A stretch of 64,000 bases of DNA from Massalongia carnosa (taxonomy: Eukaryota). Below, piece after piece: positions 21,452 through 22,197 of the stretch. The stretch covers positions 620,001-684,000 of the forward strand of contig OZ287086.1 of NCBI GenBank assembly GCA_965645245.1. The letters are read 5' to 3'. Position 1 is the stretch's first letter, and every line of letters starts with the position of its first letter. Below the pieces are notes generated by a model that ran no database searches, was not told where the DNA came from, and saw only the letters and a program-made list of their open reading frames with translations. The translations under genes and the position numbers were made by a program.

Positions 21452-22197
21452 TGTAACGGTTCAACCATACGTGGTGCGGACGGCTGTGTGACGAAGCGAG
21501 ATAGTGAATAGATTTCTACCATTGCGCCACCTGTCCTTCCCGACCAAAAGGCACAATACTTAGTCCGCAGACCAAGTTCTATTCTACTATAACTGGGACT
21601 CCTGCTATGTTCGCTGTAGGTCCTGCCGTCCGCACCACGCTTGGTCGAACCGTTACACTACCGCCCGTCTAGCTGCGGCTAGCCCCTAGCCGCTTCTAGT
21701 CATAGTTAGCCCCGAAGAATGGGCTCTTCTTAGCGTACTGCCCTCGCCGATCCGACTTGGAGAGTTTTCATCCAACGCTTTCCCGTTTCGTCCTAGCTTC
21801 AGTCCGTCGAAGCAAGGCGAAAAAGCGAGGAACTCAGGTCAGGAATCGAACTCACGACTGGTACACCGATTGAAGACTAAGTATTTTGTGACGAAGCGAG
21901 ATAGTGAATAGATTTCTACCATTGCGCCACCTGTCCTTCCGACCAAAAGGCACAATACTTAGTCCGCAGACCAAGTTCTATTCTACTATAACTGGGACTC
22001 CTGCTATGTTCGCTGTAGGTCCTGCCGTCCGCACCACGCTTGGTCGAACCGTTACAGGCTGGACCTATAGCGAACATAGTTGGAGTCCCAGTTATAGTAG
22101 AATAGAGCTTGGACTGCGGACTAAGTATTGTGCCTTTTGGTCGGGAAGGACAGGTGGCGCAATGGTAGAAATCTATTCACTATCTCTCTTCGTCGCA
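21452..22197 (+). mobile_element. Solo LTR of the TRIM family, split by a complete TRIM
   Basis: TGTAAC...TCGCA; TSD ATTAT at 21447-21451 and 22198-22202. Confidence 0.88.
21487..22056 (-). mobile_element. 570-bp non-coding LTR mini-element (TRIM): LTR 171 bp, internal 229 bp, LTR 170 bp
   Basis: Direct repeats 21487-21657 and 21887-22056 differing by one indel; TG..CA ends; TSD GGCTG at 21482-21486 and 22057-22061. Confidence 0.92.

Follow-up and report, generated by a model that had tools for sequence, protein, structure and literature searches.

A 570-bp non-coding LTR element with Tf1-type complementarity between its LTR and its putative priming site, from a transposon nest in a Massalongia carnosa assembly

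Some LTR retrotransposons prime reverse transcription with their own RNA. In Tf1, the first 11 bases were shown to pair with the PBS, and RNase H to cut between bases 11 and 12 (PMC7175516). Many further elements, from fungi and elsewhere, are inferred to self-prime (PMC6934838, PMC4600332, PMC6317226, PMC2864245). The described systems nearest to the locus reported here are Tf1 and Tf2 of Schizosaccharomyces pombe and the Tf1/sushi chromoviruses Tj1, Maggy, Skippy, Boty, Cft-1, Grasshopper, Afut1 and Tcn1. TRIMs, as defined in one of these sources, are elements shorter than 1000 bp with terminal direct repeats of about 100–250 bp and a tRNA-complementary PBS (PMC6934838). The PBS of Helenus is given as tRNA or half-tRNA type (PMC10886601). 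Our literature search found no paper describing a self-priming TRIM; one paper, on bivalves, goes no further than raising the possibility.

We analyzed a 64-kb stretch of DNA (64,000 nucleotides, hereafter the window), which is a nest of eukaryotic transposons. It contains a miniature LTR element with the following parts.

21487–22056, minus strand: complete miniature LTR element, 570 bp, non-coding
21487–21657, minus strand: 3' LTR in element orientation, 171 bp, TG..CA ends
21887–22056, minus strand: 5' LTR in element orientation, 170 bp, TG..CA ends
21658–21886, minus strand: interior, 229 bp, non-coding
21482–21486, no strand: TSD GGCTG, left copy, read directly
22057–22061, no strand: TSD GGCTG, right copy, matching the left copy
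21658–21670, minus strand: weak polypurine-like tract AGACGGGCGGTAG, directly upstream of the 3' LTR
21986–21991, minus strand: TATA-like box TTATAG, which begins 27 nt before the putative transcript start at 21964

An earlier note, made from the sequence alone, had described a complete element with LTRs of about 170 bp, a 5-bp TSD of its own and a 229-bp interior devoid of ORFs, and every coordinate proved correct. The two LTRs were 99.4% identical, and their sole difference was one C in a C-run, an indel that the note had already taken as the mark of a recently mobile element; we consider the element young. The interior contained no ATG-initiated ORF of at least 30 aa, and the two ORFs listed for the element consisted of LTR sequence. 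The TTATAG box, which the note had placed ahead of the LTR complement described below, was retained in 4 of the 5 LTR copies in our LTR alignment. The purine-rich tract that it had seen before the 3' LTR was present but weak: AGACGGGCGGTAG forms the last 13 nt before the 3' LTR, with purines at 10 of 13 positions and interruptions by C and T, and it was weaker than the G-runs preceding the 3' LTRs of two Ty3/gypsy elements of the window (gypsy A and gypsy B, see below).

The element lies in inverted orientation within a solo LTR of the same family, a setting that the earlier note had overlooked. This target and the other LTR copies in the window were as follows.

21452–21486, minus strand: 3' part of the host solo LTR, a member of the same family in opposite orientation, with TSD ATTAT at 21447–21451
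22057–22197, plus strand: 5' part of the host solo LTR, sharing 94% identity with the LTR of the mini-element, with TSD ATTAT at 22198–22202
58117–58285, plus strand: solo LTR, 93.6% identical, TSD GAAAT, within a repeat bearing a PIF1 helicase
52897–53052, plus strand: solo LTR, 86% identical, 14-nt deletion, TSD GAAAT, with the same flanks as the 58-kb copy

In the LTR alignment, both copies of GGCTG corresponded to columns 31–35 of the host solo LTR. When the mini-element and one GGCTG were removed, the host LTR became uninterrupted and the empty site was rebuilt exactly, which is direct evidence of an integrase-type insertion. The two more distant solo LTRs lie in a 3.4-kb repeat (51551–54903 and 56764–60185, 91% alike) that bears a PIF1-type helicase frame and is possibly Helitron-like. 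Because these LTRs have common flanks and the same TSD, GAAAT, they go back to one insertion that was duplicated later; the presence of the same solo LTR and TSD in both 3.4-kb copies likewise indicates that the insertion is older than the duplication. Thus, the window holds three independent insertions of the family, with the 5-bp TSDs GGCTG, ATTAT and GAAAT. The three further solo LTRs counted in the earlier note were all found, but one is the target of the element and the other two represent a single duplicated insertion.

The nested inversion leaves two arms (21487–21627 and 22057–22197) that are complementary over 141 nt at 94%. For a tighter hairpin at 21988–22095, Rfam returned miRNA-precursor matches on either strand, with scores far short of the gathering scores; we rejected this identity as an artefact of the hairpin formed by the inverted nested LTRs. 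If transcribed, the hairpin is a possible source of double-stranded RNA. The other Rfam matches were two at chance level only (JPX_2 and Cardiovirus_CRE).

Repeat comparison found the interior only once within the 64-kb window. Its copy status was assessed in public sequencing runs. Ten of the 12 public runs listed (8 studies) contained part of the stretch; one is labelled as a lichen metagenome, and none is recorded as RNA. Contigs of four runs (X1, X2, X4 and X5) were aligned at a likeness of at least 85%. The summed contig depth over the LTR and interior bins was far above that over the flanks in all four runs, where these sums are not copy numbers. The values for two of the runs were as follows.

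Run X1, summed depth: LTR bins 0.78–0.95 million, interior 0.38–0.43 million, flanks 4.5–51 thousand
Run X4, summed depth: LTR bins 61–80 thousand, interior 4.3–7.0 thousand, flanks 50–290

In X1 the interior was even across its three bins (382, 429 and 379 thousand). At position 21697, where the window has T, a C was present in 30, 13, 1 and 6 different contigs of X1, X2, X4 and X5, respectively, and the window copy departed from the family majority in the run contigs at 21697, 21701, 21860 and 21874. The variant letters across contigs indicate that the interior exists in many variants and that the copy in the window does not represent the majority. Loose ends occurred at all four LTR edges with low agreement (0.41–0.54), indicating many different flanks. 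A single contig among those listed had at least 31 letters on each side of the LTR/PBS junction: record 7 of X1 (21838–21963), which bridges the junction with 11 other letters.

These results bear on whether the element could be a one-off, produced when a long autonomous element lost its internal part after insertion, with no propagating miniature family behind it. The single occurrence of the interior in the window would fit such an origin, as would the fact that no second full-length copy of 570 bp was read end to end. Against it stand the many variant contigs over the interior at high summed depth in all four runs, the four positions at which the window copy differs from the family majority, the TSD that the mini-element has of its own, and the lack of a dominant loose end, or dominant alternative continuation, inside the interior among the loose ends listed. 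We regard a one-off deletion as the least probable of the readings considered here, with very little chance of being right. The single post-insertion deletion that the earlier note had named as the case against its own reading is thus ruled out by an interior that is multi-copy in 4 of 4 runs. Judged from the run contigs, the element belongs to a multi-copy family and is not a single deleted copy; this leaves room for copies of lengths other than 570 bp.

Exact-pattern scans with the PBS/LTR junction and with the conserved LTR block gave 0 matches each in metagenome contigs, and exact-pattern scans of public viral contigs and genome contigs also gave 0 matches each. One contig each in runs X1 and X2 joined 21657 to 21886 and skipped the interior, with intervening letters possible; such a joining of an LTR end to an LTR start may reflect LTRs in tandem, a neighbouring insertion or a 2-LTR junction. 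When 20800–22800 was compared with the other copies in the four runs, the window had T for C at 31–33 places and the reverse at 9–15. This excess lay mainly at 21003–21126 and 22335–22551, which are flanking repeats, and was biased to one strand, the kind of trace that repeat-induced point mutation or the deamination of methylated C produces.

The main feature of the element lies at the junction of its 5' LTR and interior, where three short stretches are of importance.

21885–21875, minus strand: putative PBS AATACTTAGTC, 1 nt (an A) after the 5' LTR
21964–21954, minus strand: putative self-primer GACTAAGTATT, the presumed first 11 nt of the transcript
21555–21565, minus strand: copy of the putative self-primer in the 3' LTR, same letters, invariant in 5 of 5 LTR copies

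AATACTTAGTC is the perfect complement of GACTAAGTATT over 11 nt, with a mismatch at either side of the 11 bp. The earlier note had reported this complement, its letters and its distance of 1 nt from the 5' LTR, all of which we confirmed. For a chance expectation, the LTR was shuffled 5000 times with dinucleotides preserved, and the longest perfect complement was recorded for a word starting 0–4 nt past the LTR. On the minus strand, the mini-element had 11 nt at offset 1, and only 1 of the 5000 shuffles reached at least 11 nt. The complementarity between LTR and PBS is therefore far beyond chance. On the plus strand, the same search found no LTR complement of at least 6 nt after the LTR and there was no better purine tract, so a plus-strand orientation of the mini-element was rejected. 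The self-primer lies in a 25-nt block that was invariant in 5 of 5 LTR copies, which elsewhere were 86–94% alike.

The predicted structure of the leader was consistent with this pairing. The 97-nt RNA from 21964 to 21868 had a predicted folding energy of -27.3 kcal/mol (z -3.5), which none of 200 shuffles matched. The predicted MFE and centroid folds both placed the 5' end of this RNA on the PBS and formed a panhandle together with a U5 hairpin.

Three autonomous elements in the window served as controls.

10700–17380, plus strand: gypsy A, Ty3/gypsy, identical 487-bp LTRs, TSD CATCG
45645–51560, minus strand: gypsy B, Ty3/gypsy, LTRs 97% alike, TSD TTATC
29014–34266, minus strand: copia element, 155-bp LTRs 98.7% alike, TSD ATGGG

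In gypsy A the gag (406 aa) and pol (1486 aa) frames are open, and its chromodomain match reaches 27.9 bits against a Pfam cut-off of 25.1; it is apparently an intact and very young Ty3/gypsy chromovirus. The chromodomain match of gypsy B (23.3 bits) was slightly under the same cut-off. A look-up of the gypsy B pol in the Atlas led to retrotransposon clusters with few recorded taxa, mostly Basidiomycota or Chordata.

In the shuffle test, gypsy A showed a 9-nt complement between LTR and PBS at offset 2 (15 of 5000 shuffles), and gypsy B showed a 12-nt complement at offset 1 (1 of 5000 shuffles). In both, the complementary LTR stretch lay 59–120 nt before the LTR end. The panhandle fold of gypsy B had a z of -5.4; the fold of gypsy A was no better than its shuffles (z -0.75). 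The complement of the copia element was at chance (6 nt, offset 2, 1063 of 5000 shuffles), and this element carries a different, non-self site, GTTATGAGCCC, which does not begin with TGG and which we take to be of the type complementary to the anticodon region of the initiator tRNA (anticodon-loop, half-tRNA type). Thus, the self-priming geometry is common to the two chromodomain Ty3/gypsy elements of the window and absent from copia. The primer/PBS pairs of the mini-element, gypsy A and gypsy B were mutually unrelated in sequence, and three unrelated pairs in one geometry amount to covariation across families. The Tf1-type geometry claimed in the earlier note holds in this respect also, as the complement of the mini-element matched in both position and length.

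No partner was identified by sequence. For each of the three autonomous elements (gypsy A, gypsy B and copia), the leader, the 3' end and the LTR were locally aligned with the LTR and interior of the mini-element, and no similarity was detected: all 18 comparisons fell within the range of shuffles (z -2.1 to 1.5).

The copia site raises the question of whether the TRIM might instead be primed by a host RNA, for example by an internal tRNA fragment or half, with the LTR complement being incidental. The window thus has a precedent for a PBS that does not match a tRNA 3' end. Half-tRNA priming is also common among fungal copia elements and the TRIMs dependent on these elements (PMC10886601). The PBS of the mini-element, however, was unlike that of the window's copia element, and its 11-nt self-complement was of a length that shuffled LTRs almost never reached, at an offset and position matching those of the two chromoviruses. 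The earlier note had stated that there is no TGG-type PBS, and none followed the LTR in either orientation. ARAGORN found no tRNA genes within the window. Priming by a host RNA would leave both the self-complement and the parallels with gypsy A and gypsy B unexplained, and we consider it unlikely.

A second family of explanations starts from motifs of RNA polymerase III promoters, which were noticed in the same part of the element.

From 21929, minus strand: box-A-like motif within U5, unchanged in all five LTR copies
From 21852, minus strand: box-B-like motif in the interior, 77 nt downstream of the box-A-like motif
21824–21820, minus strand: T5 run, 17 nt past the box-B-like motif

A Helenus/TRIMp3-type element, driven by a tRNA-derived RNA polymerase III unit, would account for these motifs. 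The trio of box A, box B and T-run was the only one with a spacing of 25–110 nt on either strand of the 64-kb window, in a scan that allowed one mismatch and gave 23 box-A-like and 4 box-B-like matches in all, and the box-A-like block was invariant in 5 of 5 LTR copies. The search for the two boxes was made post hoc, with consensus motifs. Tests for a tRNA-derived unit argued against it. ARAGORN reported no tRNA with its default settings, nor with lowered thresholds and introns disallowed, and the single match that it gave when introns were allowed at an 80% threshold equalled 13 spurious matches of the window in quality. Rfam gave no tRNA match up to E = 10, even when a stretch of 151 nt was searched alone. 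In the description of Helenus both boxes lie inside the LTR (PMC10886601), whereas here the box-B-like motif is outside it. Furthermore, a polymerase III transcript would end in the interior, without R, and would provide no template for retrotransposition. On the absence of a tRNA-like unit in ARAGORN and Rfam and the position of box B, we rejected an assignment to the Helenus/TRIMp3 family, and the reading as such an element is in our judgement highly improbable.

A variant, to which we give slightly more credit although it too is very unlikely, is that the two invariant LTR blocks serve two RNAs, the first as the self-primer of a polymerase II genomic RNA, the second as the box-A-like part of a polymerase III unit that also comprises the box-B-like motif and the T5 run and is split across the LTR/PBS boundary. 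If this were true, a small RNA of roughly 115 nt with the PBS inside it would arise, and the element would count as a TRIMp3-like variant whose promoter is split. Such a small RNA could then compete for self-priming or regulate it. A milder version of this outlying reading is that TRIMs of some 570 bp with self-priming could recur in fungi as a class so far undescribed.

Set against the described systems, the mini-element appears Tf1-like at the priming step and TRIM-like in build, a placement that the sequence comparisons support. Like the Tf1/sushi elements, it is without a tRNA-type PBS, it has an 11-nt site after the LTR that is complementary to LTR sequence lying past a TATA-like box, its RNA is predicted to form a panhandle that encloses a U5 hairpin, and its TSD is 5 bp. 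Unlike them, it codes for nothing, is 570 bp long compared with about 5 kb, and cannot be placed by proteins. As it encodes no protein, it has neither the pol nor the chromodomain integrase by which membership of the Tf1/sushi clade is judged, and no sequence similarity was detected between its LTR or leader and the two adjacent self-priming chromoviruses.

The build is that of a TRIM: less than 1 kb, terminal repeats within 100–250 bp (171 and 170 bp), a short non-coding interior with the putative priming site and a weak purine tract at opposite ends, a TSD, solo LTRs and several dispersed copies. A TGG-type, tRNA-complementary PBS was not detected, and where TRIMs as defined have a tRNA PBS (PMC6934838), the site of the mini-element pairs with its own LTR. 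Like Helenus/TRIMp3 as described by Kojima (2024, PMC10886601), it is a fungal-type TRIM with a 5-bp TSD, its LTRs are unrelated to those of any autonomous element, in its case those of the window, and its LTR has a conserved box-A-like motif. Unlike Helenus/TRIMp3, it has no detectable tRNA-derived sequence, and its PBS does not appear to be of the half-tRNA type. For Helenus no complementarity between LTR and PBS is reported (PMC10886601), whereas it is the main feature of the mini-element.

The best reading of these data, which we hold to be probable though well short of certain, is that of a protein-less, TRIM-sized element that uses Tf1-type self-priming and is mobilized in trans, probably by a self-priming chromovirus. 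Under this scheme, transcription by RNA polymerase II would begin near 21964 within the 5' LTR, some 27 nt past TTATAG, and the first 11 nt of the RNA would fold back onto the 11-nt site located 1 nt past the LTR. The 11-bp pairing would close a panhandle enclosing the U5 hairpin. A reverse transcriptase provided in trans would then use its RNase H to cut after the duplex, which ends in a mismatch after 11 bp, and the freed 11-mer would prime minus-strand DNA synthesis, as in Tf1. The G-rich tract ahead of the 3' LTR would prime the plus strand, and an integrase, also supplied in trans, would insert the DNA and make the 5-bp duplication. The transcript start, the RNase H cleavage and the mobilization in trans are the steps that we infer.

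The most likely helper would be a self-priming Ty3/gypsy chromovirus; two such families are present in the window, and neither can be singled out. The host of the mini-element is likely fungal. The earlier note had inferred that the element is a parasite of fungal chromoviruses. Its interpretation is partly supported: the non-coding nature, the youth and the Tf1-type geometry of the element were borne out, and no similarity to the three autonomous elements of the window was detected.

Self-priming is already known and widespread in fungal chromoviruses, and specialists will not be surprised to meet it again. Searches for TRIMs, however, rely on a tRNA-type primer site, and LTR finders that require a tRNA PBS would miss or misorient elements of this kind. 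With primer and PBS only 67 nt apart on one small RNA, the mini-element would also be a compact natural substrate for RNase H recognition. It would need only the proteins of its helper (Gag, reverse transcriptase with RNase H, and integrase) and no host tRNA. The copy shows that 570 non-coding bases can hold the cis-signals of Tf1-type self-priming, and suggests that these signals are open to parasitism.
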